The position numbers were made by a program, and so were the translations under genes. DNA of 64,000 bases from Firmicutes bacterium CAG:534. Its GTDB lineage: Bacteria > Bacillota > Clostridia > Lachnospirales > Lachnospiraceae. The DNA lies in assembly GCA_000436115.1 (NCBI GenBank), contig FR894558.1, positions 83,974-147,973 of the forward strand, given 5' to 3'. Under the pieces are notes generated by a model that ran no database searches, was not told where the DNA came from, and saw nothing but the letters and a program-made list of their open reading frames with translations. Positions 2 to 52,414 of the stretch are shown here, piece after piece; position 1 is the stretch's first letter; every line of letters starts with the position of its first letter.

Positions 2-1549
2 GTTGGAATAGAGGAGGATAAGCTGGAAATAGAGGGAAAAGGAAGCTTTCCCATAGACAGCCGCTGTCAGGGCTACCGTTTGTATGGAGCTTTGCAGAAT
101 GCAGAAAGGTCAGAGCTGCTTTTAGGCTATGACTTTACAGATTTTGTGCTGGATCATGGAAAGATATGCGCCTTTTTTATAGCCAGGGAAGAGGAGCTTA
201 GTACCATAAGAGTTGCCATTAAGAATGAAAAGACAGGAAGGCTCTATCATGACAGCCTTATCTTTTGCAGCGACAGGCCGCTTCTTTTGGAATATGGCGT
301 GGGGGATGAAATAACGCAGGAGATCCTGGAACCGTTAAAGCCTTTTGAGATTGGAAAGGATAGCTCCTGCCTGAAGGAAGGGCGGGTAAAGCTGTCGGGA
401 GATACCAATACCGCAAGAATCTGTCTTTCCTCCCTGCAAAGAGCAAGCGGAGAACCCTACTACGCCGGAACCCTTGAGGTGATCGGAACAAAGCAGGGGC
501 TGATCCTGATCAATGAACTGCCGCTTGAAAATTATCTGTTCTCCGTGGTGCCAAGTGAAATGCCCGCATCTTATCCGGGAGAGGCGCTGAAGGCCCAGGC
601 TATCTGTGCAAGAACCTATGCCATCAGATATTTATACGCTCCCGGATACCCGGAGTACGGCGCTCATGTGGATGACAGTGTAAGCTTTCAGGTCTACAAT
701 AACCTGCAGGAAAATGCAGATACCACAAAGGCAGTGAAGGAAACAGCGGGAAAGTATCTGTGCTATGAGGAAGAGCCCGTTTCTACTTATTATTACTCTA
801 CCTCCTGCGGCTACGGAACAGATGAAAGCGTATGGAGCGGAAAGGAAGAAGCACAGATGCCCTACCTTTCGGCGCACCATATTGCTGCAAAAACAGAAGA
901 GGGCTTTACGCCCGGGGAGCTTCAAAAGGAAGAAAATTTCAGGGAGTATATTACGAAGGAAGATGAAATGGCATATGAAAAGGAAGAACCGTGGTTCCGC
1001 TGGACGGCAAAGGTAGAAAAGCTGGAGGTATCGGAGTTGTCTGACAGACTAAAGGAACGTTTCCTTGCCGATCCGGAAAAAGTGCTCTTTTATGAAGGAA
1101 CAGGAGATCCGGAATATGACGGGAAGGGCTATGTATCGCAGGAGCCGGGCAGGATTAAGAGCATTTACGAGATCCGATGCCAGAAGAGAGGGGAAGGAGG
1201 CGTGATGGAGGAGCTTTTGCTGGAAACCGATCTGGGAACATATAAGGTCCTGACAGAATATAATATCAGATATATCCTGAACCAGAACTGCCAGGTCAGG
1301 CGGGCGGACGGTTCTTTGTATGAAGCTGCGACCCTGCTTCCCAGCGCCTATCTGATAATTGACGTTGTCAAATCCGGGAAAGATGTGATAGGATATACAA
1401 TGATCGGGGGCGGCTATGGGCATGGCGTTGGAATGTCACAAAATGGTGCAAAGGCCATGGCCCTTTCGGGAAAAAGCTGCGAGGAAATCCTTTCCTTCTT
1501 TTTCCCCAGCTGTGAACAGAGGGAGGCTGCGCCCATAAGGATGGATTGA
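2..1549 (+). CDS. SpoIID/LytB-domain protein (stage II sporulation protein D-like), 5' end cut by window edge
   Basis: Frame is open from nt 2 to the TTG at 80 (no upstream in-frame stop), so the gene begins before the window. C-terminal motif GYGHGVGMSQNGAKAMA is the hallmark of the SpoIID/LytB amidase-enhancer domain. Confidence 0.75.
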   Translation, partial: VGIEEDKLEIEGKGSFPIDSRCQGYRLYGALQNAERSELLLGYDFTDFVLDHGKICAFFIAREEELSTIRVAIKNEKTGRLYHDSLIFCSDRPLLLEYGVGDEITQEILEPLKPFEIGKDSSCLKEGRVKLSGDTNTARICLSSLQRASGEPYYAGTLEVIGTKQGLILINELPLENYLFSVVPSEMPASYPGEALKAQAICARTYAIRYLYAPGYPEYGAHVDDSVSFQVYNNLQENADTTKAVKETAGKYLCYEEEPVSTYYYSTSCGYGTDESVWSGKEEAQMPYLSAHHIAAKTEEGFTPGELQKEENFREYITKEDEMAYEKEEPWFRWTAKVEKLEVSELSDRLKERFLADPEKVLFYEGTGDPEYDGKGYVSQEPGRIKSIYEIRCQKRGEGGVMEELLLETDLGTYKVLTEYNIRYILNQNCQVRRADGSLYEAATLLPSAYLIIDVVKSGKDVIGYTMIGGGYGHGVGMSQNGAKAMALSGKSCEEILSFFFPSCEQREAAPIRMD

Positions 1550-16603: not shown

Positions 16604-16647
16604 GGCTCTGAGGATCATTTACGATTCCTCAGAGCCATTATTTTTTC
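16604..16647. terminator. bidirectional intrinsic terminator (leuS / convergent minus-strand operon)
   Basis: Perfect 11-bp stem GGCTCTGAGGA / TCCTCAGAGCC with 11-nt loop. ATTATTTTTT on + strand and TTTTTCTTATTTC on - strand. Overlaps the last codons of the minus-strand ORF. Confidence 0.65.
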
Positions 16648-16884
16648 AATCTTGGAAAGTTCCTCCGGAGTGGCGGATTTCCGGAGAACGGCAACGATCG
16701 CACTGATCTCGTCTTCGGAAAAGGAGACGTTTTTTTCTTTGCCGCGCTTCATTACCGCCATGAGAAAAGGGAGCATCTGCTCTTTTTTTAAATTACTGCT
16801 TTCAAAGACCAGAGCCTGCAGAAACTGAAGCTTATAAGGCTCGATGTTCTTCAGGCTTTCATCATTCATCCAATCATTCTGCAT
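16615..16884 (-). CDS. hypothetical protein (about 89 aa), second gene of coupled pair
   Basis: Start taken at ATG 16884 (MQNDWMNDESL...) because GGAGG lies 8 nt upstream and the ATG overlaps the upstream stop as ATGCAGAATGA. No recognisable domain. Confidence 0.5.
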   Translation of the reverse strand: MQNDWMNDESLKNIEPYKLQFLQALVFESSNLKKEQMLPFLMAVMKRGKEKNVSFSEDEISAIVAVLRKSATPEELSKIEKIMALRNRK

Positions 16885-17368
16885 TGCTGTTACCTCCAAA
16901 TAATTCAAACATTTGCTTTTGCTCAGGGGAGAGCATATTCATTAATACATTCATGACGTCAAAGGAACCGGCGTCTGCGCCGTCACCGCTTTCAGCGCCT
17001 GGCGGCGGCATAAAGTCCTTCATCAGATCCATTGTCTTTGACATTTCGCGGTACATTTCCATGCTTTGAAAAATATTTTTGATCTGCAATAGCTTTTGCT
17101 TTTCTGCTTCTGTGCAGAAGGGGAGCAGTTCCTCACACAAACAGCCGATATCCGGCTTTTCTTCCTGCTGGACACAGCCGCAAAGAGGGAAGGGGTGTTT
17201 TCGGTAAAAATCAAGGGTATAATTCAGTTCCAGAAACTTAATGTACACAGCAAGGGTTTTCTGGGTTTGATGATCGGCATAGGGCAGAAGGACTTTCAGC
17301 ATTTGTATGTGGTTCGTGGAAAAAAGAGTGTCAAATGCAACGACCTTACTGCTCCTGTTTTTATCCAT
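16874..17368 (-). CDS. hypothetical protein (164 aa) with CGC-x11-CLC-x6-C cysteine cluster
   Basis: AAGGAG RBS 6 nt before ATG 17368. Internal PLCGCVQQEEKPDIGCLCEELLPFC Cys cluster and acidic G/D/A-rich segment. Translationally coupled to downstream ORF. No family recognised. Confidence 0.55.
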   Translation of the reverse strand: MDKNRSSKVVAFDTLFSTNHIQMLKVLLPYADHQTQKTLAVYIKFLELNYTLDFYRKHPFPLCGCVQQEEKPDIGCLCEELLPFCTEAEKQKLLQIKNIFQSMEMYREMSKTMDLMKDFMPPPGAESGDGADAGSFDVMNVLMNMLSPEQKQMFELFGGNSNAE

Positions 17369-17420
17369 GGCTGCTCCTTTGATGCAGTTTCCATATTTTA
17401 TGATTTTACTTTAGTCGATA

Positions 17421-17450
17421 TGCAGAAAAGTAGGCCCTTTTCAGGGCCTG
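17421..17450 (-). terminator. intrinsic terminator after the small Cys-rich ORF (minus strand)
   Basis: On the minus strand AGGCCC-TGAAAA-GGGCCT hairpin followed by ACTTTTCTG, 40-70 nt after the ORF stop. Confidence 0.5.
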
Positions 17451-17488
17451 CTTTCCGGACATGGTAGATAGAAAAGAAAAGAGAGAAA

Positions 17489-17731
17489 TTAGCATCCGCA
17501 ACCGCAGCCGCTGTTGTTATTGCTTCCGCAGCAGCCAAGAAGTAACAGGATCAGGATAATGCTTTCGCATCCACAACCGTTGTCAGAGCCAAGGGAAAGG
17601 CCGCTGCCGTTGTTTCCGCAGCCACCGCAGAAGAATAATAAAATGATGATCCAGATGATAGAGCTGCAGCAGCCGTTATTGGAGTTGTTTGATGTGCCGC
17701 ATCCACATCCTGTAGCTGTTAAGTCACTCAT
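17489..17731 (-). CDS. small (80 aa) Cys/Gly/Asn/Ser-rich protein with two Ile/Leu hydrophobic cores, unknown family
   Basis: Canonical GGAGG-6nt-ATG. Product MSDLTATGCGCGTSNNSNNGCCSSIIWIIILLFFCGGCGNNGSGLSLGSDNGCGCESIILILLLLGCCGSNNNSGCGCGC. Own terminator downstream. Low-complexity, so coding status is not certain. Confidence 0.5.
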   Translation of the reverse strand: MSDLTATGCGCGTSNNSNNGCCSSIIWIIILLFFCGGCGNNGSGLSLGSDNGCGCESIILILLLLGCCGSNNNSGCGCGC

Positions 17732-17839
17732 ATGTTGCCTCCAAAAGTTTTTATTTATGCTCTATCATATGCGGCTTGAGAAGGTGTGTGACTGAAAAAA
17801 ATAATTCTTATTTCCTATTACGATATGTGGACAAAATAC

Positions 17840-17898: not shown

Positions 17899-19107
17899 AT
17901 GACGGCGGAAAGTCTGACCGTTGCGGGGAGGCACTTTCGCACAAAAGCGGATTATGAAGCTGCACTACGCGATCAGAAGAAAATAAACACCATCAAGGCA
18001 CAGACAGACCTGGAAGATCCCGTACAACTTTATGAACTGTATGGCGAGATGCAGAGTGGAATTTACCGGTTTGAAACACTGGTAGGAAATGACTTTGATG
18101 ATGAAATTTATGAAAAAATAGAAAAATTAAAGAAACAGGGCATTACGGCCCAAAATGCAGCCCGTTTTTTTCCCAAGGGAAAAGCGGGGAAAGGGAAAAA
18201 GGGGAAAAAAGAAAAGAAAGCCCATAGATCTGCACAGGGGACAAGCAAACCAAAGAAAAAAGAAATACCGTCTGGAGCCATGGACAAAATCATGGAAGAA
18301 CAGGTGCTTTTAGAACTAAGAAGGCGGGAAAAGCGCAGAAAACTCATTGTCCTGGCAGCTTCCGTGGTGGCGGTAGCAAGCCTTTCCTATTTTGGAGTTT
18401 ATTATTTTGTGGCAGCCAGGAACAATGCAAGCTATGAACAGCTTGCCGCCCTAAAGGGCAGCGATGTTTTAGCAGATGCCAAGGATAAAAATGATTTTGC
18501 GATCCATAAGACCGCAGTTCAGCTCCCGGATGTGCTGGATGAATATAAAACTTTATACGAAAAGAATAAAAAGCTAATCGGATGGCTTAAAATTGACGAT
18601 ACAATAATAGATTACCCTGTTATGCAGACTGGTGACAATTCCTATTACCTGGAACACAATTTCAATCAGGAGTATGACAAGAACGGAAGTCTTTTTCTGG
18701 ATTATAATTGCAGTATTTATCCCCGTTCCACCAATCTGATCATTTACGGGCATCATATGAAATCAGGGCAGATGTTCGGACAGCTTCAAAAGTATGCCAA
18801 GCAGTCTTATGGCGAGAAGCATTCCATCATTACGTTTGACAGTATTTACGAAAAGGCAACCTATCAGGTCATGTATGTATTCCGATCTCAGGTGTACAAT
18901 GAGGATGACCTGGTTTTTAAGTATTATCAGTTCATTGACGCTAATTCCAAAAAGGAATTTGATTCTTACATGAATGAAATGGCGAAAATGAGCCTGTATG
19001 ATACGGGTGTGACAGCAAGCTATGGAGACAGTCTTTTGACCTTGTCTACCTGTGACAATTCACAGACAGACGGAAGGTTTGTTGTAGTAGCAAAGAGAAT
19101 TAAGTAA
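17899..19107 (+). CDS. srtB: class B sortase with about 155-aa cytoplasmic N-terminal extension
   Basis: Catalytic-domain signatures YLEHNFNQEYDKNGSLFLD, IIYGHHM, LTLSTCD (TLxTC Cys) and trailing conserved Arg. Single TM helix at about residues 158-180. Lys-rich N-terminal domain (KGKAGKGKKGKKEKK). Confidence 0.85.
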   Translation: MTAESLTVAGRHFRTKADYEAALRDQKKINTIKAQTDLEDPVQLYELYGEMQSGIYRFETLVGNDFDDEIYEKIEKLKKQGITAQNAARFFPKGKAGKGKKGKKEKKAHRSAQGTSKPKKKEIPSGAMDKIMEEQVLLELRRREKRRKLIVLAASVVAVASLSYFGVYYFVAARNNASYEQLAALKGSDVLADAKDKNDFAIHKTAVQLPDVLDEYKTLYEKNKKLIGWLKIDDTIIDYPVMQTGDNSYYLEHNFNQEYDKNGSLFLDYNCSIYPRSTNLIIYGHHMKSGQMFGQLQKYAKQSYGEKHSIITFDSIYEKATYQVMYVFRSQVYNEDDLVFKYYQFIDANSKKEFDSYMNEMAKMSLYDTGVTASYGDSLLTLSTCDNSQTDGRFVVVAKRIK

Positions 19108-19124
19108 CCAAAGGAGTGTTACAG

Positions 19125-22100
19125 ATGACGAAAACAGCAAAGAAAAATAGAAAGCTGAAAAGACAGGTAAGGAAAACCATTGGAGGCCTTTTTATGGCCT
19201 CTGCTATTGTGATAGCGGCATTACCTGTACAGGATGTCAGTGCAAATCCGGGAGAGGCAGCCAAACCTGCACCGAAGGTCTGGGTATGGGATAGCCAGGG
19301 GAAGAGAACAGGAGATCTGGCAGGAACGCCGGATTCTTCCATAAAGTCCTTCTGCGAGAGCACGATCCCTTATGTGCCGGATGATGCAACGATTTATACC
19401 TCCGGTGACGGAAGATTTCAGTTTGCTTATGTCAATCCGGGGGATGGAGTAAGATCCGCAGTTATCCTGAATTATAATTCTACGGTATTACAGGACAGTA
19501 CGCTTACAATTCCCAATTCTCTGGAGGCGTTCCGGAAATATAAGACAACTCAGACAGAGGGCGGATATTGCCTGGTTACACAAAACGATGAATTTATGTT
19601 TTATGATGTGTACGAACAGGATTATGTGATGGATGGAAGTAGCCAGGTGCTGCTGTATTATGTTCCGGAGATCAAGTATGACACAGACAAGCATCCGGTG
19701 CCTGCAGGTTCAAGCTACAATGTGGGAGAGTCCATGGTTGTCAACAAAAATCAGCTTGTTACCAGAGATGATAAGCTGGTATACATTGATCCCACAGATC
19801 CTTATGAGTATGATGAAAATGGAATTGCAATCGGAGAGAAGCTTTTTGATGTAACGGAGCGTATGGTGACTCACCAGAAGCCCTGCTATTATGAGCAGCG
19901 CTCCATCTGGGGAGATCAGGACGATAATAAGCTGTATTACCAGGTGAAGAAATCTGTCAATGATAATAAGCCAAATGGAGATTTGATCCATCCTACGGAT
20001 AACGACCATTACAGAATTAATGCCAGCGTGAAATATATCGGACAGCAGTTTATTGATACCAATACCGTAGACGGAACCTGGAGCGTGCGCAAAAACGCAT
20101 ATCGTACAGGCCCGGATGACGGCGTGTTTGCTAACAACGCCAACATCACGAACCTGGTCATCGGAGAAAATCTTTCCGGTATCAGCGACTATGCTTTTCA
20201 GGGGTGTGCAACCCTTCAGAGCGTAAGCTTTGGAAACAACCTGTCAACCGTTGGAAATGGCGCCTTTGCAAACTGCATCAGATTATCACAGTGTAATATG
20301 CCTGTGGAATCCAATATCCAGTCGCTTGGAAAGGATGCGTTTTACAACTGTACGGCGCTTACCAGTATTACCCTGCCAATCAACGTGAAAGCCATTGGAG
20401 ATTCCTGCTTTGAGGGATGCACCAGATTACAGACTGTGGACTTATGCGGAGGCAGTGAAGATGAACTGGACACCATGCTTCAGACTATCGGAAATTCTGC
20501 ATTTAAGAATTGCAGTTCTCTGGGCGAGGTTATTTTCCCCAGCCAGTATGCAGAAAGCAATCTGCAGATCGGCGTATTTGAGGGGTGTTCAAATTTACAG
20601 CGTGTAAAAGTACCAAACAGCAATATGGATTTTACAGATGATACATCCTTCACCTTTGAGACGTTTAAGGATACAGTGCCGGAAAGCTTTTATTTCTGGG
20701 GAGCAGATACCAAGACGGATGACAGAATTGGCAGATCTGCTTTGCATGTAACGGCGAATGAGGAAGAAATTGCTTATAAATACTGGGATAAGGAAGTGTA
20801 CGAGGTTGTGATCTCGGAAGCGGCAACAGGAGCCTCTATCACCTATCAGGTAAATGACCGAAACGAACTGACCAAGATCTGGATCGAGGGAAATCCTGAA
20901 AATGTGGAAATTCCCAAACGGATCGGACCTTATGGAATATCAACTATAGGAACCGGCTGCTTCGACAATGCGTGTACCATTAAGCGTGTTACGATCCCGG
21001 AAACGGTTGCAAATATTGCAGACGGCGCATTTAAGGGAACCCACAATCTGAAAACCGTGATCTTCAGCAATGCGTCAACCATCCAGAGCATCGGAACGGA
21101 TGCGTTCCGCACACAGGTTGTATCCTGCGGGGATAAAATTACGGAAGAAGATCCTGAGCTTACCTTTGTAGGGGCTATGATCAATGACGCCGGGACAGAT
21201 ACAGTACCGTTCATCTACGCCATGACGCCGGAAAACATGATCAACAATCCGGATCAAAATAAGGCATGGATTACCTGTCACAGTGGCTGGCCTACCAATC
21301 TGGAAGTAAAATATAATTATGATTACACAACCGAAGAGGGCGGCGCAGAACTGGAAAGCTATCCCAGATATGATAACTTTACGGATGCCATTACAGATGC
21401 AAGCGGTAATATTACAGGCTTTAAATCCAACAGGGGCAAGATAGAGGCCTATGTGGCGCAGCTTCCCTATGTGAATACTTCGGATGATACGGAAGAAACC
21501 TATCTTGCTGATGTGATCCAGGAAGCGATTGACCGCTGCGAAAAGAATGATCCTGCCAACCTTCCTACAGAAAAGATGCTTGAGCTTGTAAATGCATCCA
21601 AAAATGTAGTGGTGCCTACCAACGTAGATATGCTGAAAAAGGGACTCTTTTCCGGTTATACATATAAAACAGACAGTAACGGAGAGCCTATTGTACCTGA
21701 AGAAGCAGAGGTTGTTGGAACAGAAGGACCAGACACCTATATTAACTCGATTACTTTAAATGGTGTGAATACCATTGATCCGTTTACCTTTACCGGATGC
21801 AGTAATCTTCAAAGTGCAGCGATTATCGGGGCCACAGAGCTGGGCGATTATGCTTTTGGCTGTCTGGAAGAGCTGGACGGTATCACCGGAGTGATTAATT
21901 CAACCAGTGAAAATTGTGAAAATCTTTCCAGCGTTACCTTAGGCCCTAATATTGCAACGGTAGGAATGAGGCCGTTCAGAGGCTGCGATAAGCTCACCAA
22001 CATAGAATGCCTTGGCAGTAATCTGGCATATCAAAACGGTATTTTATATGATTTGAACAATGGTAAAAAGACCATTGCGGAATGTCTGCCCGGAAGAGGA

Positions 22101-24089
22101 ATTAACGTAGGCTCCTATACCGTCGGGCCGGAGGAATTTGACGGGGTAACAGATGTTCTGCCGGAAGCATTTATGGATTGTGATGAGATCGGTAAGGTTG
22201 ATCTGTCCACCACAACGGTAGATACCATACCGGACAGATGCTTTATGGATACGAAAATCCTGACCTCGGTTGTCCTTCCGGATACCGTCAAAAATATTGA
22301 GAAGGATGCCTTTAAAAACAGCGGTCTTAAGCTGTTAACAATCCCTGGAAATCAGGCGTATATTGAAAAAGATGCCTTTGAAAGCAGTCCTCAGCAGACG
22401 ATTAACTTTGAATGTGTTGAGGGAACCACAGCGGACAGATATGCCAAGGAATATGACTATATTAATCCGGAATACGGAAAGGTTTATCTGACCCACACCG
22501 TAACCTTCTGGGACTACCCGGATTACCCGGATATTACAAGCAAGGCTGTATACTATACCACCAAGGTAAAGGACGGAGAGGACGCTGTTCCGCCTACTAC
22601 GCCTCCTTCCCATGACGGAGTTGCCTTCAGCAGATGGACAGACTATACCAACATTTCCAAGGATACAGATGTGTGGCCGATTTTTGGATCCAACATCTAT
22701 GCGGTTTCCTTTATGGATTATGATGGAACACTGATCGGAGAGGTACAGTATATTGAGGAAGGCAAGAGCGCAACGCCTCCTGCCAACCCTACAAGAGAAG
22801 GCTATACCTTTGATAAGTGGTCTCAGGACTGGAACAATGTCACAGAAGACAGAACGATCATTGCGCTTTATATAGATAATTCCAGTGACGCCAGCAGGCA
22901 CACGGTTATCTTTTACGATTATGACGGAAAGACCATTTTAAGCCAGCAGTCCGTAAATGACGGAGAAGCGGCAGTAGAGCCCAAGTCGCCTACCAGAGCC
23001 GGTTATACTTTCCTGGGATGGGTGCCTTCGGACTTCTCAAAGGTCACAAAGGATATGAATATTGTGGCAAATTATGAGAAGGAAGGAAGCGGTACTTCCT
23101 CCAGCGCAAACCCTTCCGGCAGTGGCAGCAACAATGGAAACAATAATGGAAATAACGGCAATGGCAGCAATGCTTCTCCCACCCCCACATCAGCTCCTGG
23201 CGCAAACGGCAGTGATGTGAAGAAGTACACCGTATCGGTATCGGGCGGAAGCGGAAGCGGCAGCTATGCAGCAGGTGCAGTGGTAGCGATCAATGCATAC
23301 TTTATGGGAGAAGGACAGGTCTTTGATAAGTGGACTTCTTCTACAGCGGGAGTTGGCTTTGCAAATCCCAATGCGTCCTCCACAACCTTTACCATGCCTG
23401 CAGCAAATGTGGCCATTACAGCAACCTATAAGACAGGAAGCGGCAGCGCCAATGCAAATGCTGCAAATGGAGGCAGTTCCGCCTCTGGACAGAATGGATC
23501 AAGCTCAAGCAGCAACGGAACCAAGGTAGAGATTACCAGACCGGGTATTTCCAATACAGGACTTGCAGGTGCAACCGTAAGCGGTGCAACAGATAACTTT
23601 ATTGTAAAGATCACAGAGGATCAGGCAGCAACGGATGCGGTGATTGCAGCGCTTCAGGCAGAATACGGAGATATCAGCAGACTGAAATATCTGCCTATGG
23701 ATATCAGTCTGTATGACTCCACCGGCAGAACCAAGATCGCTGATACCTCAGGGATCAGTGTGAACTTAACACTGCCGCTTCCGGATGATCTGATCCAGTA
23801 TGCAGGCAATAATATGGCCGCAGCGGTTAATAAAGGACAATTAGAGAAGCTAAATGCCAGATTTACAACAGTAGACGGAGTACCGTGCATTAACTTTACT
23901 GCTACGCATTTTTCACCTTATGTGATCTATGTAGATACAGCAAACCTGACGCAGGCGACCATTGATGCCACACCGAAGACCGGTGATCCCATTCATCCTA
24001 AGTGGTTTTTGGCAACAGGACTTGCATGTATTTCCCTGATTTTGTTCTTTAAGAGGGACAAGAAGGTGTTACCCGTTAAAACGGCTTAG
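19125..24089 (+). CDS. cell-wall-anchored surface protein: signal peptide, BspA-type leucine-rich repeats, Listeria-Bacteroides (Flg_new) repeats, G/S/N linker, C-terminal TPKTGD sorting signal
   Basis: About 1654 aa. Start at ATG 19125 (AAGGAG 8 nt upstream). Repeated IGxxAFxxCxxLxxVxxP LRR units. GYTFxxW...IxALY repeats. C-terminus ...ATPKTGDPIHPKWFLATGLACISLILFFKRDKK (motif, hydrophobic segment, basic tail). Confidence 0.85.
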   Translation: MTKTAKKNRKLKRQVRKTIGGLFMASAIVIAALPVQDVSANPGEAAKPAPKVWVWDSQGKRTGDLAGTPDSSIKSFCESTIPYVPDDATIYTSGDGRFQFAYVNPGDGVRSAVILNYNSTVLQDSTLTIPNSLEAFRKYKTTQTEGGYCLVTQNDEFMFYDVYEQDYVMDGSSQVLLYYVPEIKYDTDKHPVPAGSSYNVGESMVVNKNQLVTRDDKLVYIDPTDPYEYDENGIAIGEKLFDVTERMVTHQKPCYYEQRSIWGDQDDNKLYYQVKKSVNDNKPNGDLIHPTDNDHYRINASVKYIGQQFIDTNTVDGTWSVRKNAYRTGPDDGVFANNANITNLVIGENLSGISDYAFQGCATLQSVSFGNNLSTVGNGAFANCIRLSQCNMPVESNIQSLGKDAFYNCTALTSITLPINVKAIGDSCFEGCTRLQTVDLCGGSEDELDTMLQTIGNSAFKNCSSLGEVIFPSQYAESNLQIGVFEGCSNLQRVKVPNSNMDFTDDTSFTFETFKDTVPESFYFWGADTKTDDRIGRSALHVTANEEEIAYKYWDKEVYEVVISEAATGASITYQVNDRNELTKIWIEGNPENVEIPKRIGPYGISTIGTGCFDNACTIKRVTIPETVANIADGAFKGTHNLKTVIFSNASTIQSIGTDAFRTQVVSCGDKITEEDPELTFVGAMINDAGTDTVPFIYAMTPENMINNPDQNKAWITCHSGWPTNLEVKYNYDYTTEEGGAELESYPRYDNFTDAITDASGNITGFKSNRGKIEAYVAQLPYVNTSDDTEETYLADVIQEAIDRCEKNDPANLPTEKMLELVNASKNVVVPTNVDMLKKGLFSGYTYKTDSNGEPIVPEEAEVVGTEGPDTYINSITLNGVNTIDPFTFTGCSNLQSAAIIGATELGDYAFGCLEELDGITGVINSTSENCENLSSVTLGPNIATVGMRPFRGCDKLTNIECLGSNLAYQNGILYDLNNGKKTIAECLPGRGINVGSYTVGPEEFDGVTDVLPEAFMDCDEIGKVDLSTTTVDTIPDRCFMDTKILTSVVLPDTVKNIEKDAFKNSGLKLLTIPGNQAYIEKDAFESSPQQTINFECVEGTTADRYAKEYDYINPEYGKVYLTHTVTFWDYPDYPDITSKAVYYTTKVKDGEDAVPPTTPPSHDGVAFSRWTDYTNISKDTDVWPIFGSNIYAVSFMDYDGTLIGEVQYIEEGKSATPPANPTREGYTFDKWSQDWNNVTEDRTIIALYIDNSSDASRHTVIFYDYDGKTILSQQSVNDGEAAVEPKSPTRAGYTFLGWVPSDFSKVTKDMNIVANYEKEGSGTSSSANPSGSGSNNGNNNGNNGNGSNASPTPTSAPGANGSDVKKYTVSVSGGSGSGSYAAGAVVAINAYFMGEGQVFDKWTSSTAGVGFANPNASSTTFTMPAANVAITATYKTGSGSANANAANGGSSASGQNGSSSSSNGTKVEITRPGISNTGLAGATVSGATDNFIVKITEDQAATDAVIAALQAEYGDISRLKYLPMDISLYDSTGRTKIADTSGISVNLTLPLPDDLIQYAGNNMAAAVNKGQLEKLNARFTTVDGVPCINFTATHFSPYVIYVDTANLTQATIDATPKTGDPIHPKWFLATGLACISLILFFKRDKKVLPVKTA

Positions 24090-24098
24090 GAGTATTCC

Positions 24099-26846
24099 AT
24101 GAATAGAAAAATTGCAAAAACCCTGAGTATTCTGCTGGCGCTTACGGCGCTGGCAGTTACCCAGGTACCTGTGTCAGATGCGGAAGCAAGCGCTGTCGCA
24201 TCTGATTTTGAAATGGAAGGAAGTAAGCTACTCAAATATACAGGCACGGCGGAAGTCGTGTCTATTCCTGATAGCATTAAAGTGATCGGCGAGGAAGCGT
24301 TTGCGGGAAATGAAGATCTGATCAAAGTAACGGTAGCGGGAGATGTAGAGGAGATCGGTTATCGTGCCTTTGCAGGCTGTGATAATCTGCGGACCATAGA
24401 ACTGGGGGATGGAGTGAAAACGCTTGATACGGCGGCTTTTGCCAATGACGGCGAGCTGGTGAACGTGACCCTGGGCGCAGGAGTGAAGGATCTGGGAACC
24501 GGAGTATTTGCAGGCTGCGGGCAGTTAAAGGAGCTGCAGGTTTCAGAGGATAATCCCTATCTGCATTATTCCAATGGCGTGTTGTATGATGATGAAGAAA
24601 CCATTTTGTATGCAGTGATGCCGGGAGCCATGAAGGGGGCGTATACCCTGCCTTCAACGGTAAAAGAGATCAAGGGCTATGCCTTCTGGGGAAACCCTTA
24701 TCTGGAAGAGCTGACGCTGGGAAGCGGGCTTTCGGAGGTTCCTGCCTATGCGTTTTCAAATTGCAGTAATTTAAAGAATGTTTATATTCCACTTCCGGTA
24801 AGAGGAATTGGTGCCAAGGCATTTGAGGATTGTGTAAACCTGGAAAAGGTTACATTACCGGATTCCATGGCGAATATCAGTGACAGCGCCTTTGACGGCT
24901 GTCCCAATGTGAGCTTTGATGCGACGCTTGGAACCTACAGCGGCGATTTTGCAGCGGCCTTCCAGAAGTCGGATGTAGAGGAAGTAGAATACGAAGAAGT
25001 GCAGGATTCACAGGTGATCGATCCTGCGCAGATTACAAATGATACGTCAGATCAGGCACCTGCAAATGATCAGACCACGCCTCAGGAAGAAAATGCGCCC
25101 CAGACGGGAAATCCATCTCCGTCTCCAACCATAGGAGTAGAGACCACCACGGTGAATAACCTGACGATCCTTGGCCAGTCCAGTATTGTATCCGGCAGAG
25201 CCGTGATCTTTATTGATAACAGGCAGGCTTCTGTTATGTCAGGAGGACAGACGGCGAACGGAACTGCGTCACAGAGTGGGAAAATAGATCTGTCAGGAGA
25301 GGAGCAGCCCGTAACTACGCAGGAAGGAAACGAAGCAAGGGATCTTCTGGTGGATAATGCACAGAAGGGAAAGGATTTTCCTAAATATACTGTAGCAGGA
25401 GATAAGATTGCCAGCCAGGCTTTTTATCAGCAGGCGGACATGACAGATTATGAGATCCCGGAGGGAATAACAGAGATCGGAGAGTTTGCCTTTGCCCGGA
25501 GTGGATTAAAGAAAGTGATTATCCCAGAAGGCGTGACAACCATTGATTATGGTGCGTTTTATCATTGCGATCAGCTGACAGAGGTGCAGATTCCATCCAG
25601 TATATCTAAAATAGATGCCCATGCATTTGATAATACGCCCTGGCTTTCCAAACAGCTTGCAGGCAGTTCCTATGTGATCGTAGGAGATGGAATTCTGCTT
25701 GCTTATGGAGGAACAGACAGTGTTGTAAATATTCCAGGCGGCGTGAAGCAGATCGGACCTCAGGTCTTTAAGGACCATATGGGAATTACGGCAGTGAATA
25801 TACCGGACACCGTAGAAGTGATCGGAGAGGAAGCCTTTATGGGCTGCAGAAATCTGAAAACAGTAAACGGCGGTAAAAATCTGACAGCCATTGAGGATCG
25901 GGCTTTTAAAAACTGTCCTCTTTCCAGTGTGACTATTCCGGCTTCTGTAAAGTCGGTAGGACTGGAGGCATATGAAATTCCGGGAGGAACAGATACCGTA
26001 GTATTTGAGGGAACGGAGCTGCCCGTATTGATGATGGGGAACAGCGCAAAAAGACTGGCAAACAAGCAGGAGCGCGGCTATGCGTTTTCTCCTGTTAAAA
26101 ATGCGGTGGTGCCGGAGGGAGTAACGGATCTGACAGGAACGGTGCTGGAAAGCGGAAAATATGGTTTCGCAGGAACGGTAATTACACCCTCGGGGACGGT
26201 TGTAGCCGATAATACGGCAGGCGTACAGACCGTACAGGATGCCGGGGTATCGGTTGTGATTGACAGCGCTTCCCTTACAAAGGATGAAAATACACAGGCA
26301 CAGCTTGCCGGTGAAAACGGCAGCTTTGTACTGAAAATAAAGGACAGCGAGGATGCTGCCGCCCAAATAGCAGAGGCATATGGGGAATTGTACGGTGGAA
26401 AGGTACCGGATCATTTGCTGGCATATGATATTTCCCTGTATGATAATTCTCAAACGATCCCCATAACGAAGCTGGGAAAACAGACAGCGACCATACAGCT
26501 CAGCATTCCGGATGGAATATCACCGGAAAAAATGCATGTGGTGACTTTGGATCAGGACGGACAGCTTGAAGCAGTGCAGTTCAGATTACTGGAGCTTTCC
26601 GGGAAACCCTGTGTACAATTTACTACAAACCATTTTTCACCTTATGGGATTTATACCTATTCGGACTTAAACGGACAGGCCGTTGTGACAAATGGAAAGG
26701 CTGTGATCACAGATCTTTCCGGCAATAAGGATGATACTCCTGATACAGGGGATCCCATACATCCCAAGTGGTTTTTGGCGATTGGACTTCTTGCAGGAGC
26801 AGTAGCGCTTTTCTTTTACAAAGGGAAAAGAAAAGGAATTTCATAA
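24099..26846 (+). CDS. second cell-wall-anchored BspA-type LRR surface protein with C-terminal TPDTGD sorting signal (paralog of upstream gene)
   Basis: 915 aa. Signal peptide MNRKIAKTLSILLALTALAVTQVPVSDAEA. LRR units. C-terminal about 150 aa alignable with the upstream protein. Ends ...DTPDTGDPIHPKWFLAIGLLAGAVALFFYKGKRKGIS. AGGAG RBS. Confidence 0.85.
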   Translation: MNRKIAKTLSILLALTALAVTQVPVSDAEASAVASDFEMEGSKLLKYTGTAEVVSIPDSIKVIGEEAFAGNEDLIKVTVAGDVEEIGYRAFAGCDNLRTIELGDGVKTLDTAAFANDGELVNVTLGAGVKDLGTGVFAGCGQLKELQVSEDNPYLHYSNGVLYDDEETILYAVMPGAMKGAYTLPSTVKEIKGYAFWGNPYLEELTLGSGLSEVPAYAFSNCSNLKNVYIPLPVRGIGAKAFEDCVNLEKVTLPDSMANISDSAFDGCPNVSFDATLGTYSGDFAAAFQKSDVEEVEYEEVQDSQVIDPAQITNDTSDQAPANDQTTPQEENAPQTGNPSPSPTIGVETTTVNNLTILGQSSIVSGRAVIFIDNRQASVMSGGQTANGTASQSGKIDLSGEEQPVTTQEGNEARDLLVDNAQKGKDFPKYTVAGDKIASQAFYQQADMTDYEIPEGITEIGEFAFARSGLKKVIIPEGVTTIDYGAFYHCDQLTEVQIPSSISKIDAHAFDNTPWLSKQLAGSSYVIVGDGILLAYGGTDSVVNIPGGVKQIGPQVFKDHMGITAVNIPDTVEVIGEEAFMGCRNLKTVNGGKNLTAIEDRAFKNCPLSSVTIPASVKSVGLEAYEIPGGTDTVVFEGTELPVLMMGNSAKRLANKQERGYAFSPVKNAVVPEGVTDLTGTVLESGKYGFAGTVITPSGTVVADNTAGVQTVQDAGVSVVIDSASLTKDENTQAQLAGENGSFVLKIKDSEDAAAQIAEAYGELYGGKVPDHLLAYDISLYDNSQTIPITKLGKQTATIQLSIPDGISPEKMHVVTLDQDGQLEAVQFRLLELSGKPCVQFTTNHFSPYGIYTYSDLNGQAVVTNGKAVITDLSGNKDDTPDTGDPIHPKWFLAIGLLAGAVALFFYKGKRKGIS

Positions 26847-26904: not shown

Positions 26905-27828
26905 ATGCTTCGGGTAAGACGGCAAATAGGCTGCAGCGATGAACTGCTGGATACCTGCAGGGGATCAGGAGTGACGGTTGCTATGTTAGACACCGGAGTG
27001 GCTCCCCATCCGGATTTTGAAAACAGAGTGATCGCCTTTGCAGATTTTGTGAATGAAAGAAGGACCCGGTACGATGACAGCGGGCATGGAACCCATGTTG
27101 CCGGGTGTTTGTGCGGCAGTGGACGTGTATCAAGGGGGCGCTATAAGGGAATTGCGCCTGACAGTCTTCTGGTGGTGGGAAAGGTTCTTGATTATAAGGG
27201 GGACGGAATATTAGAGAGCATGCTCCGCGGAATGGAGTGGATCCTTGGAATACAAAACAGATACAATATCCGCATTTTAAATATCTCTATTGGAATGGGA
27301 AGCGCACCTAATCAGGATAAAATGATGCAGCTCCTGTCGCTGGTGGATGAGGCGTGGAAACAGGGGATCACAGTAGTATGTGCAGCAGGAAATATGGGGC
27401 CAAAGCCCATGAGCCTGTCGCCGTTGGGACAACGGGAGCAGGTGATTACGGTGGGGTGCCATGAGGGAGGATATTTTGGAAACCGAAAAGGACTGTGCGA
27501 GGATTATTCCAGCAGGGGACCAAGCCCCTATGCAATGAAAAAACCGGATATTGTGGCGCCGGGAACAGAGATTATTTCCTGCAGCTCAGGGATCAGGCTG
27601 AAAGGGCGTTGTTACCAGAATGCTTATGCAGCCAAGAGCGGGACCTCCATGGCAACGCCTATCGTATCGGGAGGTGCGGCGCTGCTATTGCAGAAAAATC
27701 CGGCCCTGTCGAATGAAGAGGTAAAAAGGAAGCTGCTGCATACGGCGCATGATCTGGGAGAACCATGGAATAAGCAGGGATGGGGAATGATTGATATAAA
27801 AAAACTGCTGGAAAACGCAGGGGGATAA
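26905..27828 (+). CDS. subtilisin-like serine protease (peptidase S8), no signal peptide
   Basis: Catalytic triad blocks VAMLDTGV (Asp), HGTHVAGC (His), GTSMATPIVSGGAALL (Ser). 307 aa, no hydrophobic N-terminus. ATG 26905 is the first start after an in-frame stop at 26860 and has no SD. Confidence 0.8.
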   Translation: MLRVRRQIGCSDELLDTCRGSGVTVAMLDTGVAPHPDFENRVIAFADFVNERRTRYDDSGHGTHVAGCLCGSGRVSRGRYKGIAPDSLLVVGKVLDYKGDGILESMLRGMEWILGIQNRYNIRILNISIGMGSAPNQDKMMQLLSLVDEAWKQGITVVCAAGNMGPKPMSLSPLGQREQVITVGCHEGGYFGNRKGLCEDYSSRGPSPYAMKKPDIVAPGTEIISCSSGIRLKGRCYQNAYAAKSGTSMATPIVSGGAALLLQKNPALSNEEVKRKLLHTAHDLGEPWNKQGWGMIDIKKLLENAGG

Positions 27829-33313: not shown

Positions 33314-33955
33314 ATGGAACAAAAGGAAATTTCACAGGCAGTTATTGGGCGTCTGCCGAGATATTTCAGATATTTGGGTGAACTGAAGGATGAGGGGATT
33401 GAACGGATTTCATCGCAGGAGCTTTCCGACATTATGAAGGTGACGGCATCCCAGATCCGGCAGGATTTTAATAATTTTGGAGGCTTCGGACAACAGGGAT
33501 ATGGCTACAAGGTAGAGTACCTTTATCAGGAGATCGGCAAGATCCTGGGTCTTGACAAAACCCATCATCTTATTATCATCGGAGCAGGCAATTTAGGCCA
33601 GGCCCTTGCCAATTATATGAATTTTGAAAGAAGAGGATTTCTTTTTAAGGGGATTTTTGATAATAACCCTGCGCTGTTTGGGAAAAAGATCCGGAATTTG
33701 GAAGTGAAGCCCATGGATGAGCTTGAGCAGTTTGTAAGAGAAAATAATATTGATATTGCGGTGCTGACTATACCAAAGAACAGCGCCATCCAGGTGGCGG
33801 AGCGGCTTGCCGCCAATGGGATCAAGGGTATCTGGAATTTTGCCCATGTGGATTTGAATGTGCCGCAGGAGATCCAGGTAGAGAATGTTCATTTGTCAGA
33901 CAGCCTGATGAAGCTTACTTATAATATCAATTGTTTTGGGCAGGGAGGTGACTGA
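33314..33955 (+). CDS. rex: redox-sensing transcriptional repressor Rex
   Basis: IGRLPRYFRYL winged-helix start and IIGAGNLGQALANY Rossmann NADH-sensing domain. 213 aa. Confidence 0.9.
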   Translation: MEQKEISQAVIGRLPRYFRYLGELKDEGIERISSQELSDIMKVTASQIRQDFNNFGGFGQQGYGYKVEYLYQEIGKILGLDKTHHLIIIGAGNLGQALANYMNFERRGFLFKGIFDNNPALFGKKIRNLEVKPMDELEQFVRENNIDIAVLTIPKNSAIQVAERLAANGIKGIWNFAHVDLNVPQEIQVENVHLSDSLMKLTYNINCFGQGGD

Positions 33956-33956
33956 C

Positions 33957-34559
33957 ATGTCCAGAAGAGAAGAGGTCTTCGGACCTGCGCTTGCGGGACG
34001 GGAGATACCGGTTCTCACGTTAGACAACAAATGGCATAAGCTGTTTGCACAGTCTAAGCCGGATAAAACCATCACCCATCTTCAAACGGAGCTGAATGAT
34101 CTGATCAAGAGGCAGGGAAAGGCAAACACAGAACGCAAGGAGATCAGGAAGCTCAAGAAAAAGTTAATGCAGGAGATCATGAATAATGCGGAGGGAGCCT
34201 CCGTAAAGGATGACGAAACTGCAAAGAAAAAGGCGAAGGAGCTGAAAAGACTCACAGAGGAATGCAGCCAGAGACAGCAGGAATGTGAGAAGGAGCTTTT
34301 GAGCCTTCCGGGCGAAATCGAAAGGGTCAACCGGGAACTGATGCTGGCTACCATGGATAACTGTTATCGCCGTCTGTGGCAGAATAAACGGGAGATCGAC
34401 GAGTCAGCAGAATGGATTGAAAAAACACGCATAGAGCTGAAGGAGCGGCTGGGCAGGAACCAGGAGCTTGAACAGGTTAATCAGGAGCTTTATGCCTATA
34501 TGCATGATATTTTTGGTGCAGAGGTGATCGATATCTTTGACATGGAATATCAGAAATAA
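33957..34559 (+). CDS. hypothetical coiled-coil protein
   Basis: About 200 aa, Lys/Glu-rich heptad-like sequence, no recognisable domain. GGGAGG RBS before ATG 33957. Confidence 0.5.
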   Translation: MSRREEVFGPALAGREIPVLTLDNKWHKLFAQSKPDKTITHLQTELNDLIKRQGKANTERKEIRKLKKKLMQEIMNNAEGASVKDDETAKKKAKELKRLTEECSQRQQECEKELLSLPGEIERVNRELMLATMDNCYRRLWQNKREIDESAEWIEKTRIELKERLGRNQELEQVNQELYAYMHDIFGAEVIDIFDMEYQK

Positions 34560-42168: not shown

Positions 42169-44898
42169 ATGGCACAGACAAAGAAAGGAAACGGCGGACA
42201 AAGAGCAAACAGCCGCAAAAAGACAACAGGAAACAGGGGGAATTCAGGGAGAACTGCTTCTGCTCGGAAAGACCAAAGAAAAGCAGAACCCATGGATACG
42301 GCAATCCGAAATGAAATTTTTCTGATTGGTTTGTTTGCTGTCTGCATTTTTCTTTTTGTTTGTAATTTCAGGATCGCAGGAACCTTGGGAAATGCCATCA
42401 GTGATGTGATGTTTGGAATTTTTGGACTGCTGGCGTATGTGATGCCTCTGGCCCTGTTTTTGATGATCGCTTTTGGAACTGTGAATAATGGGAATTCCAT
42501 TGCACTCAGAAAGCTGATCGCCATTGGCTTTCTGGCCCTTCTTTTGTCGGCAGTTTTTGAACTGTTTACGGGAGCGCCGCTCGAGGCGCAGGAATATCAG
42601 CCCAAAGATATTTTTGAGGCCTGTAAGGAGGGAAGAAACGGCGGTGGGATCATTGGCGGCTCTGTGGCCTATGGCTTATATCATTTTCTGGGAGTTATCG
42701 GAACGGTGCTTGTGATCCTGGTGGCAGCGATCATTTCCGTTGTGGTGGTGACGGAGAGATCCTTTGTATCCGGAGTGAAAACGGGAAGCAGAAAGGTGTA
42801 TGAGAGATCAAGACAGGACGCTGCATACCGGAAAGAAAAGGCAAGACTTAAAAGAGAAGAGTTAGAAGAGGAAAGAGCCCGCAGAATAGAAGAAAAGAAG
42901 CTTCATCAGGAAGAACTGGAAAATGAAAAGATCCTCAGAATGGATAAAAAGGTTTCAGGTGTTATGCTGAATACCACCCTGACGGAGCAGGAGGAAAATG
43001 AAAAGGGCAGGGATGATCTTCATGAGATCAATCTGACAGATTTTGATAAACAGATGGAAAAAGCGGTTCGGGATGCAGAACGGGAGGAAACAGAGACTCC
43101 GGAGGAGAAGCAGTATGACTCCATACCTGTGATGATAAATGGCACCTATGATTATGAGGAGGGTGGCGATGAGCTGTCCGAGATCACCGGGGATTTTGAA
43201 ACCATGCAGGAGCCTTTTCCTGCAAAGGAGAGTGCTCCTTTCAGGGAAGAAGCACCGGGACTGCAGGAGCAGCCAGCTTTCCCAAAGGCGAAAGCGGTGG
43301 CTTCCGCCACAAAGGATCAGGGATCTATCTGGAGAGATGGAAATGCTGCGAGAGGCACTTCCGGCAGCGTTACTTTTTCAGACCCTGCAGCGCCGAAAGC
43401 AGAAAAGCCGAAACCGGCTCTCCCTAAGAAATACATATTTCCACCGCTGAACCTTCTGGTAAAGGGACAGGGGAAAAACGGTGATTCTTCAAAGGAACTG
43501 AGAGAAACGGCGCGCAGGCTGCAGCAGACATTAGAGACCTTTGGCGTTAAGGTGACGATCACCGACATCAGCCAGGGACCTGCTGTTACAAGGTTTGAAC
43601 TGCAGCCGGAACAGGGAGTGAAGGTCAGCAAGATTGTAGGACTTTCTGATGACATTAAGTTAAATCTTGCTGCAACGGATATCAGAATTGAAGCGCCAAT
43701 TCCCGGGAAGGCAGCCATCGGCATCGAAGTGCCCAATAAGGAAAATTCCATGGTTGCGCTGCGGGATCTGCTGGAAAGCAGAGAATTTAAGGAATTCCCA
43801 TCAAATCTTGCCTTTGCGGTAGGAAAGGACATCGGCGGAAAAGTGGTAGTGGCGGATATTGCCAAAATGCCTCATATGCTGATTGCCGGTGCTACCGGGT
43901 CAGGAAAGTCGGTCTGCATTAATACCTTGATCATGAGTATCATTTATAAGGCAAACCCGGAGGATGTGAAGCTGATCATGGTAGATCCCAAGGTAGTGGA
44001 GCTGAGTGTGTACAACGGGATCCCGCATCTTTTGATCCCGGTAGTTACAGATCCCAAAAAGGCGTCGGCAGCCCTGCAGTGGGGAGTGGCTGAAATGACA
44101 GACCGTTATCAGAAGTTTGCAGATTTCAATGTGCGTGACCTGAAGGGATATAATAAAAAGCTTGAAACAATGACGGCCCAGGGAGAAAGCGATGTTCCGG
44201 CAAAGATGCCCCAGATCGTGATCATTGTGGACGAGTTGGCAGATCTGATGATGGTTTCGCCGGGAGAGGTGGAGGAATCCATCTGCCGTCTGGCACAGCT
44301 TGCCCGTGCGGCCGGGATCCATCTGATCATAGCAACCCAAAGACCCTCTGTAGATGTAATCACGGGCCTGATTAAGGCAAATATGCCAAGCCGTGTGGCA
44401 TTCAGCGTTTCCAGCGGTGTGGATTCCAGGACAATCCTGGATATGAACGGAGCGGAAAAGCTTCTGGGAAAAGGAGATATGCTGTTTTATCCTCAGGGAT
44501 ATACAAAGCCGGCCAGAGTGCAGGGAGCCTTTGTTTCGGACAAGGAAGTGTCAGATGTAGTAGAATTCCTGAAAAATCAGGCTCTTGGAAATGTGTATGA
44601 TCCGGAGATCCAGGATAAGATTGCAGCCCATACAGGCGGAGGTGCCGCATCAGGAGGCTCCGAGGGAGGAAATGAAAGGGATCAGTATTTTGAGGAAGCA
44701 GGAAGATTTATCATAGAAAAGGAAAAGGCATCCATTGGAATGTTACAGAGGGTGTTTAAAATTGGTTTTAACCGGGCTGCAAGGATCATGGATCAGCTAT
44801 GCGAGGCAGGAGTGGTTGGAGAAGAGGAAGGAACAAAGCCGCGCAGGGTCCTGATGAGCATGGAGCAGTTCGAGCAGTATATAGAGGAGGTACTATAA
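42169..44898 (+). CDS. ftsK: DNA translocase FtsK/SpoIIIE
   Basis: N-terminal 4-TM anchor, long Glu/Lys/Pro-rich linker, motor domain with Walker [10 protein letters not shown] and Walker [13 protein letters not shown]-terminal gamma (winged-helix) domain. Confidence 0.9.
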
Positions 44899-51364: not shown

Positions 51365-52414
51365 ATGAAGAAGATATTTGATGAAGAGGACGAGAAGGAT
51401 TTTCAGGAAAATGATAAAGCAAAAATCTTAGTGACGATCATTCCTTTTGTATTGATCATTCTGGTGCTTCTTGTTACGTTGGTTTTGAACCATACGGGGA
51501 AAAGCAGTTCCGAACAGGTACAGGACAGCATTAAGGAATACGCAGATGCAGGAAAGCAGGAAATGGAACCGAAGTCGGAAAATAAGGATCCGGAAGTAAC
51601 GGTTTCGGAAGAGGAGCCCACAGGGGAAGAAGAAGCAGTGCAGACAATGCAGCCTTCCGAACAGGAAACGCCGGCGCCCACACCGGTCCCGACTAAATCG
51701 CCGCAGCCTGCAGGGAAGGAAATTGATTTCAGCAAAGTAAAGTACGATAAGGATGCCCAGCTTAAGGAAATGATGGGCTACTGGGAGGACAATAATCAGC
51801 AGGCACTGTCCGACCTTGCTTATCTTGATCGTTTCAGAGCGATGTCATGGTCCTTAAAGGGAACAACGGATTTTTATTATTACGGAGAAAAGGGAACGGA
51901 CGGAAAGCCAAACGGAACAGGGATTGCTGTGTATGCAGACAACCAGTATTATTATGGACAATGGAAGGATGGAGTAAGAAGCGGGGAAGGAACCTGGTTC
52001 CATTACCATATACCGGCCTCTAAAGGAGCAGGGGAGCTGGTGAAATTCCATCAGTACACAGGAGCTTTTCAGGGAGATCTTCCGGAAGGAGAAGGCTCAG
52101 AGCACTATGATTTTAATACTGAAAAAATGAACAGCAAGCAGAGATATACATCCAATCTGATCGGAACCTATCATGCAGGACTTGTGAACGGTTCTTTTTA
52201 TCTGACGACCATTTATGCAGATGGAAACATGGAGGAATGGAATGCTACGGCAGTGAACGGTTCCTGGCAGTATATTTATAATAAAGCGGATCCCAAAGGA
52301 AATAAACCGGTTTATGTCAGTACAACGGATGAAGAAGATTGTGTGTGGATGAATCCTAAGGAGAATACCGGTATTGGCGTTTCCTGTTTGATTTCTTCAA
52401 ACAAAAAAGCATGA
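51365..52414 (+). CDS. hypothetical membrane-anchored protein with MORN-like repeats
   Basis: N-terminal TM ILVTIIPFVLIILVLLVTLVL, Pro/Glu/Thr linker, then YYYGEKGTDGKPNGTGIAVYADNQYYYGQWKDGVRSGEGTWF (YxGxWxxGxxxGxG MORN pattern). Confidence 0.5.
   Translation: MKKIFDEEDEKDFQENDKAKILVTIIPFVLIILVLLVTLVLNHTGKSSSEQVQDSIKEYADAGKQEMEPKSENKDPEVTVSEEEPTGEEEAVQTMQPSEQETPAPTPVPTKSPQPAGKEIDFSKVKYDKDAQLKEMMGYWEDNNQQALSDLAYLDRFRAMSWSLKGTTDFYYYGEKGTDGKPNGTGIAVYADNQYYYGQWKDGVRSGEGTWFHYHIPASKGAGELVKFHQYTGAFQGDLPEGEGSEHYDFNTEKMNSKQRYTSNLIGTYHAGLVNGSFYLTTIYADGNMEEWNATAVNGSWQYIYNKADPKGNKPVYVSTTDEEDCVWMNPKENTGIGVSCLISSNKKA

Follow-up and report, generated by a model that had tools for sequence, protein, structure and literature searches.

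A cysteine-rich micro-protein family of the Lachnospiraceae with a sigma-K-type promoter: candidate late sporulation proteins

YjcZ proteins are tiny, roughly 50 amino acids (aa) or fewer, with a Gly/Cys-rich stretch beside a very hydrophobic Ile/Leu segment. Larger cysteine-rich proteins of about 160–400 aa (CdeC and CdeM of C. difficile; CotY, CotZ and ExsY of Bacillus) originate in the mother cell and assemble into cross-linked structures in the outermost layer of the spore. In the moth eggshell, the arms of the chorion proteins, which are eukaryotic and secreted by means of a signal peptide, harden the shell through disulfides. The yjcZ gene belongs to the sigma-K regulon of B. subtilis, which has been described together with its promoter consensus (PMC517825), and the YjcZ family has been described as membrane-associated small proteins (sORFdb preprint). 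CdeC and CdeM are needed for exosporium morphogenesis and spore resistance (PMC6101409) and so provide a precedent for cysteine-rich exosporium proteins in an anaerobe. Here we analyze a gene, termed A, in a stretch of 64,000 nucleotides (nt) from Firmicutes bacterium CAG:534 (Lachnospiraceae; assembly GCA_000436115.1, contig FR894558.1, positions 83,974 to 147,973), referred to below as the window. The gene encodes an 80-aa Cys/Gly/Asn-rich micro-protein. Far from standing alone, it heads a conserved cluster, A-B-C. The explanation we favor, to which we give somewhat better than an even chance, is that A is a late mother-cell sporulation micro-protein of the spore envelope, cross-linked through its cysteines, with B and C as partners made earlier.

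Gene A is read from the minus strand (Table 1). An earlier reading of this DNA from its letters, here called the sequence-only reading, had reported the open reading frame (ORF), its translation, a GGAGG placed 6 nt ahead of the ATG and a hairpin terminator, and all of these were confirmed. We scanned one genome per GTDB species for relatives and fetched 84 of their loci in all. The ORF is unbroken in each of the 84, with a length of 68–101 aa, and in 8/8 contigs of the same species (L085–L092, at ~2154–2396 in each). A core ribosome-binding site (RBS) lies no more than 16 nt from the ATG in 85/85 sequences, that is, the 84 relatives' loci plus the window. Such a record is far beyond chance. 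Variants of the gene within the species show synonymous changes and three conservative changes only. Gene A occurs once within the window and once per locus among the relatives, and it is under purifying selection.

A second ORF runs antisense to gene A, and a skeptic might hold that this plus-strand frame, or a compositional artefact, is all there is. The plus-strand frame is indeed free of stops inside the A coding sequence at 67 of 82 loci, and the gene caller skipped A in all eight same-species contigs. The sequence-only reading had named this plus-strand ORF as the alternative frame. Codon-position entropy in the A alignment (0.30, 0.12 and 0.95) was dropped as a frame test, since the plus-strand ORF shares its wobble position with A, and recoding was simulated instead. 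When codons were replaced synonymously so as to keep the A protein, the plus-strand frame was still open in 84% of trials (median 100%). When the plus-strand peptide was kept, just 2.9% of trials (maximum 13%) left the minus-strand frame open, although in nature it is open at every locus. The openness of the plus strand is thus expected from the A protein, because stops on that strand would need sense Tyr, His or Gln codons, which the family lacks or nearly lacks. Moreover, it is in the minus-strand reading that the ATG, the RBS, the promoter and the terminator are conserved. These data show that selection acts on the minus-strand frame, that this frame is, as good as certainly, a real gene, and that the plus-strand ORF is a by-product of A composition; the chance that A is not a gene is negligible. 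An antisense ORF of this kind can mislead ORF clustering and codon-position tests.

The protein of the window contains 17 Gly, 13 Cys, 11 Ser, 10 Asn, 10 Leu and 8 Ile, with cysteines at positions 9, 11, 21, 22, 35, 38, 53, 55, 67, 68, 76, 78 and 80; the figure of 18 cysteines given earlier was a miscount. It has no Lys and no Arg, so tryptic workflows would be expected to miss it. No Sec-type signal peptide is apparent at the N-terminus, which reads as acidic and polar. The two hydrophobic blocks flanked by Cys/Gly/Asn-rich arms that had been described are present, and two blocks are likewise found in 80 of 82 relatives. Across the family the architecture is constant: an N-terminal MSDL[TAS]AT.CGCG (most often MSDLTAT.CGCG), two [SC][IL]IWIILLL..C(C)G[GN] units, and arms rich in Gly, Cys and Asn between and after them, with many CGC and CGGC motifs. 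The hydrophobic blocks are the most conserved parts. Family members have 10–20 cysteines and almost no Tyr, and their overall composition is 21% G, 18% C, 13% N, 11% L, 8.5% S and 8% I. Lysine is found in 0/81 proteins of the family, only 0.7% of residues are Arg, and isoelectric points have a median of ~4.

Had the protein been placed in 'no recognisable family' with regard to curated libraries only, the statement would stand. Neither Pfam nor NCBIfam gave a match, even at E ≤ 10, to A as a whole, to its halves or to relatives (the NCBIfam scan at this threshold covered the window protein, its two halves and six relatives). Broader searches gave a different answer. With phmmer, 119 relatives of about 70–90 aa were found among 5.8 billion proteins, and a profile search against 1.84 billion cluster representatives yielded 430 clusters (50% identity) at E ≤ 1e-3. 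Relatives were confirmed at 176 loci at least in species-representative genomes. Of the 80 loci fetched from the GTDB species scan, nearly all belong to Lachnospiraceae, with Acetatifactor, Agathobacter, Roseburia, Blautia, Kineothrix, Parablautia, Laedolimicola and Mediterraneibacter among the carriers. Two bins with other labels, one Senegalimassilia sp. (an actinobacterium; L074) and one Oscillospiraceae (L083), hold typical members with the same promoter; the occurrence in the actinobacterium-labeled bin probably reflects binning contamination and not the true distribution. RefSeq and UniRef label the relatives 'chorion class high-cysteine HCB protein 13' (e.g. WP_412575827.1), and literature searches on this name and on Lachnospiraceae Cys-rich coat proteins turned up nothing on any bacterial member. 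The A family is uncharacterised and mis-annotated, and it is found almost only in Lachnospiraceae.

How does A compare with the proteins introduced above? Its nearest functional analogue would be YjcZ, a late mother-cell micro-protein. However, A is longer, has two hydrophobic blocks, the MSDLTAT N-terminus and the partners B and C, and is nearly confined to Lachnospiraceae; the YjcZ hidden Markov model (HMM; TIGR01732) did not match A, its halves or six relatives at E ≤ 10. CdeC, CdeM, CotY, CotZ and ExsY resemble A in being Cys-rich, but they are much larger and lack Ile/Leu cores, and no sequence relationship to A was detected. With the silk-moth chorion Hc-B proteins A shares a design in which Cys-Gly repeat arms flank a hydrophobic center, and this resemblance is the source of the database name. 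Judging from the sequences, that name is a misnomer: A had no Pfam match at E ≤ 10, hence none to a chorion model, and the similarity appears compositional and purely convergent. SCIFF and ranthipeptide precursors and bacterial metallothioneins are also small, Cys-rich and ribosomally made, but the hydrophobic cores of A are foreign to both. The sequence-only reading had set A apart from these two groups, and rightly: the two Ile/Leu/Trp cores are conserved, no radical-SAM neighbor is conserved, and none of the NCBIfam or Pfam models, whether for SCIFF, ranthipeptides or metallothioneins, matched. We regard YjcZ, the Cys-rich exosporium proteins and moth chorion as analogues of A, not as relatives. 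Most likely, the A family adds a further variant to the small Cys-rich proteins of sporulation and does not amount to a wholly new category.

The clearest indication of when A is made comes from the DNA upstream. The 130 nt 5′ of A are strikingly conserved, with the consensus gAAAC..(N)..aCATAngATAAAccaTAAA..GGAGG. A CATAnnnT lies 35–49 nt ahead of the A ATG in 80 of 83 distinct upstream regions, and 63 of the 83 contain the strict form, AC-N15-17-CATAnnnTA. The background for the latter is 0.7% in random and 2.7% in AT-rich 90–100-nt windows (those AT-rich windows being drawn from the same loci), so the motif is enriched about 30- to 100-fold at A. Apart from the element at A, the 64-kb window has no exact AC-N16-CATAnnnTA match. 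Gene A thus has the –35 AC, the 15–17-nt spacer, the –10 CATAnnnTA and the suitable distance to the ATG of a sigma-K-regulon promoter. Sigma-A-type scores, by contrast, are not enriched, with values of at least 9/12 in 30% of upstream regions versus 23% of the AT-rich background. An 'nCA' precedes TAnnAT in 70 of 79 A upstream regions, and the TG of an extended –10 never does. The adenine at +16 from the start of the –10 CATA is invariant in 80/80 anchored sequences, and transcription of A would start near it, at about 17755. A conserved (C/T)(C/G)(A/T)TAAA was also seen 12–17 nt past the start of the –10 CATA (17759–17754 on the minus strand), followed by an A-rich leader; it may belong to the leader or indicate where transcription starts.

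Downstream of A, a second promoter precedes B and C. There, a CATAnnnT lies 20–75 nt ahead of the B start at 38 of 48 loci, compared to 9% of random 64-nt windows; the consensus of the anchored sequences reads GCATA-N-CATAaaAT. The two promoters differ in the –35 zone. At A, mACm is found in 73/80 cases and ATA in 2/80, whereas at B, ATA is found in 30/39 and mACm in 4/39. This very difference has been reported to discriminate between mother-cell sigma factors, and the split makes the A promoter sigma-K-type and the B promoter sigma-E-type. These data suggest that A is expressed in the mother cell in a sigma-K-dependent manner, which we consider likely. A copy of CATATGATA 5′ of the S8 peptidase gene of the window was also considered as a promoter and rejected, as it sits in the loop of a terminator hairpin.

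At its 3′ end, gene A is followed by a hairpin, AGGCCCT-GAAA-AGGGCCT, with a 7-bp stem (5 G-C pairs) and a GAAA loop, and then by ACTTTTCTGC. A hairpin (ΔG ≤ –7 kcal/mol) and T-rich tail within 110 nt of the A stop codon are present at 74 of 82 loci, while stem sequences vary. This suggests that A is made as a short, separately terminated transcript. The earlier description of A as a genuine, monocistronic minus-strand gene therefore holds up: A is probably transcribed alone, from its own promoter to its own terminator.

The partners of A are two helical proteins, B being all-helical. Searches with tblastn found B at 70/85 and C at 71/85 loci, directly downstream of A and on the same strand, so that about 83% of A loci carry both; several loci scored as lacking B or C are truncated contigs. 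B has conserved cysteines (C65, C78 and C85) and an acidic low-complexity linker. Databases place the start of C at the ATG at 16884, and the resulting 89-aa form is exactly P0370, which is seen on 868 contigs and labeled 'putative uncharacterized protein [Firmicutes bacterium CAG:534]'. This ATG overlaps the end of B by 11 nt, indicative of translational coupling, which suggests that B and C form a coupled operon. Pfam and NCBIfam scans revealed no enzyme domain in either protein, and profile searches of both against PDB sequences gave nothing significant. A relationship between B and C was considered and rejected (hhalign probability 2.8%). The Met-rich C-terminal motif of B (16877–16960, minus strand), MLMNMLSPEQKQMFELFGG in the window and MLTPEQ in most relatives, is reminiscent of LTXXQ, a motif of the ATP-independent chaperones of the Spy/CpxP type. 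The match of the C-terminal half of B to such chaperones was non-significant (E 0.5–0.7) and is kept as a lead only; B might hold A, which would be aggregation-prone.

A structure prediction for A, which the sequence-only reading had recommended, was obtained with AlphaFold2 (AF2; 35 sequences). It places low-confidence helices at residues 23–35 and 55–69, which are the hydrophobic blocks, with disorder elsewhere. Are these helices inserted in a membrane, as had been proposed? In favor, besides the helices, the first block of the window protein is the most favorable of the family, at –1.06 kcal/mol on a crude Hessa-scale sum. Most members are unfavorable, however: for the best 19-residue windows, the same crude sums have family medians of +2.2 and +2.8 kcal/mol, with 1–2% below 0. 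Uninterrupted hydrophobic runs span 8–12 residues, mostly 8 or 11. Such short cores and the absence of basic residues argue against a canonical two-pass topology. Insertion is thus weakly supported.

Taken together, two ordered mother-cell-type promoters conserved over many species, a family predicted to be largely spore-forming and a SpoIID gene in the window point to a sporulation locus, a context that the sequence-only reading had not remarked on. Indeed, 82% of Lachnospiraceae are predicted spore-formers (PMC8340488). We envision that sigma-E polymerase would make B and C early in the mother cell, and that sigma-K polymerase would then make much of the short A transcript. With no signal peptide and no basic residues, A would stay in the mother-cell cytoplasm, from which it can reach only the exterior of the forespore: the outer forespore membrane, the coat or the outermost layer. 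Its two 8–12-residue Ile/Leu/Trp cores would drive self-association or interfacial membrane binding, while B and C would serve as a scaffold or as holding partners. On lysis of the mother cell, the Cys/Gly/Asn arms would cross-link by disulfides, or possibly by metal bridges. With no Lys and hardly any Tyr, A has no residues other than cysteine that could be cross-linked. The outcome would be a hardened, hydrophobic shell, and the earlier suggestion of a disulfide-rich protein survives as part of this explanation. For the structural role in the spore envelope taken by itself, we judge the chances to be slightly short of even.

Several points weigh against this explanation. The strict sigma-K motif is missing from 20 of 83 loci, including that of Coprococcus eutactus (L001). 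Assignment of the sigma factors is based solely on sequence motifs, and because the –10 elements of sigma-E and sigma-K are alike, the proposed timing could be wrong. Confidence in the AF2 model is low (pLDDT, the predicted local distance difference test score, is 51). No sequence or HMM link connects A to characterised coat or exosporium proteins (Pfam/NCBIfam, E ≤ 10). About 18% of Lachnospiraceae, by prediction, no longer sporulate (PMC8340488), and disulfide formation in a strict anaerobe is uncertain.

The neighborhood of A bears on other explanations. We clustered all ORFs of at least 70 aa within ±4 kb of A at 82 loci. The only widely shared families were A (76 loci), B (69) and C (68). 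Less frequent recurrent neighbors were a convergent leuS (36–40 loci), srtB with BspA-type leucine-rich repeat (LRR) surface proteins (26–28 loci) and a divergent S8 peptidase gene (13 loci), which there lies directly beside A. A 55-locus 'family' upstream of A was discarded as an artefact that chained antisense ORFs with sortases and isocitrate dehydrogenases. In the window, A and a class B sortase gene (TIGR03064, 161 bits) point away from each other, as had been noted. Co-regulation of the two, which had been thought conceivable, is unlikely: srtB is adjacent at only 28/85 loci, compared to ~70/85 for B and C, and the A promoter is sigma-K-type, not vegetative. The search for homologs urged earlier was thus rewarded with many, but a conserved srtB neighborhood is not among their traits. 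In the window, the S8 peptidase gene lies beyond the srtB/LRR block, and in 13 other species it is beside A; hence the block looks like a clade-specific insertion between the S8 peptidase gene and A.

One alternative, close to the main idea of the sequence-only reading, is that A is a micro-protein of vegetative cells that crosses the membrane twice and either binds metal or Fe-S clusters or forms disulfides in the envelope, perhaps in connection with the sortase/surface-protein locus. The many CGC and CGGC motifs, the AF2 helices on both blocks, the favorable first block of the window protein, the loci where srtB is adjacent and a weak sigma-A-like match overlapping the A promoter in the window (GTCACA-17-TATGAT, 9/12) would all fit. 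But the typical member has short runs and unfavorable insertion sums, and no Lys and almost no Arg with which to set a topology. It is the sigma-K motif and not the sigma-A score that is enriched, and srtB is absent from two thirds of the loci while B and C persist. We therefore consider this unlikely. Holins and type I toxins suggest another possibility, in which A is a late mother-cell effector such as a lysis peptide of that sort, or else a store of cysteine, redox equivalents or metal for the spore. The sigma-K-type promoter evidence would serve this idea equally well, and the two short hydrophobic helices of the AF2 model and the very high thiol content suit it. Yet the ends of holins and type I toxins are normally charged and rich in Lys/Arg, a feature that the A family lacks, and no antitoxin RNA or endolysin partner is conserved. 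We consider a late effector quite unlikely.

Finally, the sequence-only reading had raised the idea of a precursor peptide modified by enzymes encoded elsewhere. As a ribosomally synthesized and post-translationally modified peptide (RiPP), A would have MSDLTAT as its leader and the Cys-rich remainder as its core. A small Cys-rich protein with a strongly conserved N-terminus and its own promoter and terminator is what one might expect of such a precursor. However, at the 82 loci no radical-SAM, YcaO or lanthipeptide-type enzyme, peptidase, protease–exporter pair or ABC exporter is conserved within ±4 kb, and the genes that are conserved, B and C, encode helical proteins without an enzyme domain. 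A matched no NCBIfam model of any kind, and hence none of that library's precursor models (e.g. SCIFF). Moreover, its most conserved parts are the hydrophobic blocks, which would be unusual for a core peptide, and there is one copy per locus. The idea gains nothing from these data, and we deem it very unlikely.

Coordinates of A, its partners and other features of the window are collected in Table 1. The genes for a SpoIID-domain protein and an FtsK/SpoIIIE-family translocase are consistent with a spore-forming genome but no proof of one. Two further plus-strand ORFs, 33936–34559 (207 aa) and 51365–52414 (349 aa), had no Pfam match at E ≤ 1e-5.

Table 1. Positions of gene A, its putative control elements, its partners and other features in the window
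Feature	Position	Strand	Remarks
Gene A	17489..17731	–	80-aa Cys/Gly/Asn-rich micro-protein; translation as in the sequence-only reading
RBS of gene A, GGAGG	17738..17742	–	Strong; 6 nt ahead of the ATG; read from the sequence
Sigma-K-type promoter of gene A	17763..17789	–	–35 AC, 17789–17788; 16-nt spacer; –10 CATATGATA, 17771–17763
Intrinsic-terminator-like hairpin and T-rich tail, 3′ of gene A	17422..17449	–	Hairpin proper, 17449..17432
Sigma-E-type promoter of B and C	17394..17423	–	–35 GCATAT, 17423–17418; –10 CATAAAATA, 17402–17394
Gene B	16874..17368	–	164 aa, all-helical protein
Gene C	16615..16884	–	89 aa, helical protein; longest ORF starts at 16908
Antisense ORF	17514–17795	+	Pro/Gln/His-rich; shares wobble position with gene A
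Sortase/LRR block	17899–26846	+	Class B sortase, then two BspA-type LRR proteins (1657 aa and 915 aa)
S8 peptidase gene	26905–27828		Beyond the srtB/LRR block
SpoIID-domain protein	80–1549	+	ORF may run past the left edge of the window
FtsK/SpoIIIE-family translocase	42169–44898	+	

The A family exposes a blind spot. The gene goes uncalled (as in all eight same-species contigs), its relatives bear a silk-moth name, and its product offers no tryptic sites, so that annotation and standard proteomics would miss it. To our knowledge, almost nothing is known of Lachnospiraceae spore coats, and the coat proteins of Bacillus and C. difficile are poorly conserved. Lachnospiraceae rank among the gut commensals that are most abundant and pass most readily from host to host, and they are believed to rely on spores for this passage. 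Tentatively, and with the odds against it, A-B-C may be an unrecognised morphogenetic module of the Lachnospiraceae spore surface, in which a sigma-E-dependent scaffold or chaperone pair, B and C, precedes a flood of sigma-K-dependent A in the mother cell. The lysine-free, trypsin-invisible, chorion-like A would self-assemble through its Ile/Leu/Trp cores and be locked by disulfides when the spore meets oxygen. If so, the module would give these strict anaerobes a hydrophobic, resistant outer shell that lets them pass between hosts, and a family-wide micro-protein with a sigma-K-type promoter and two partners would provide a testable entry point to the Lachnospiraceae spore coat.

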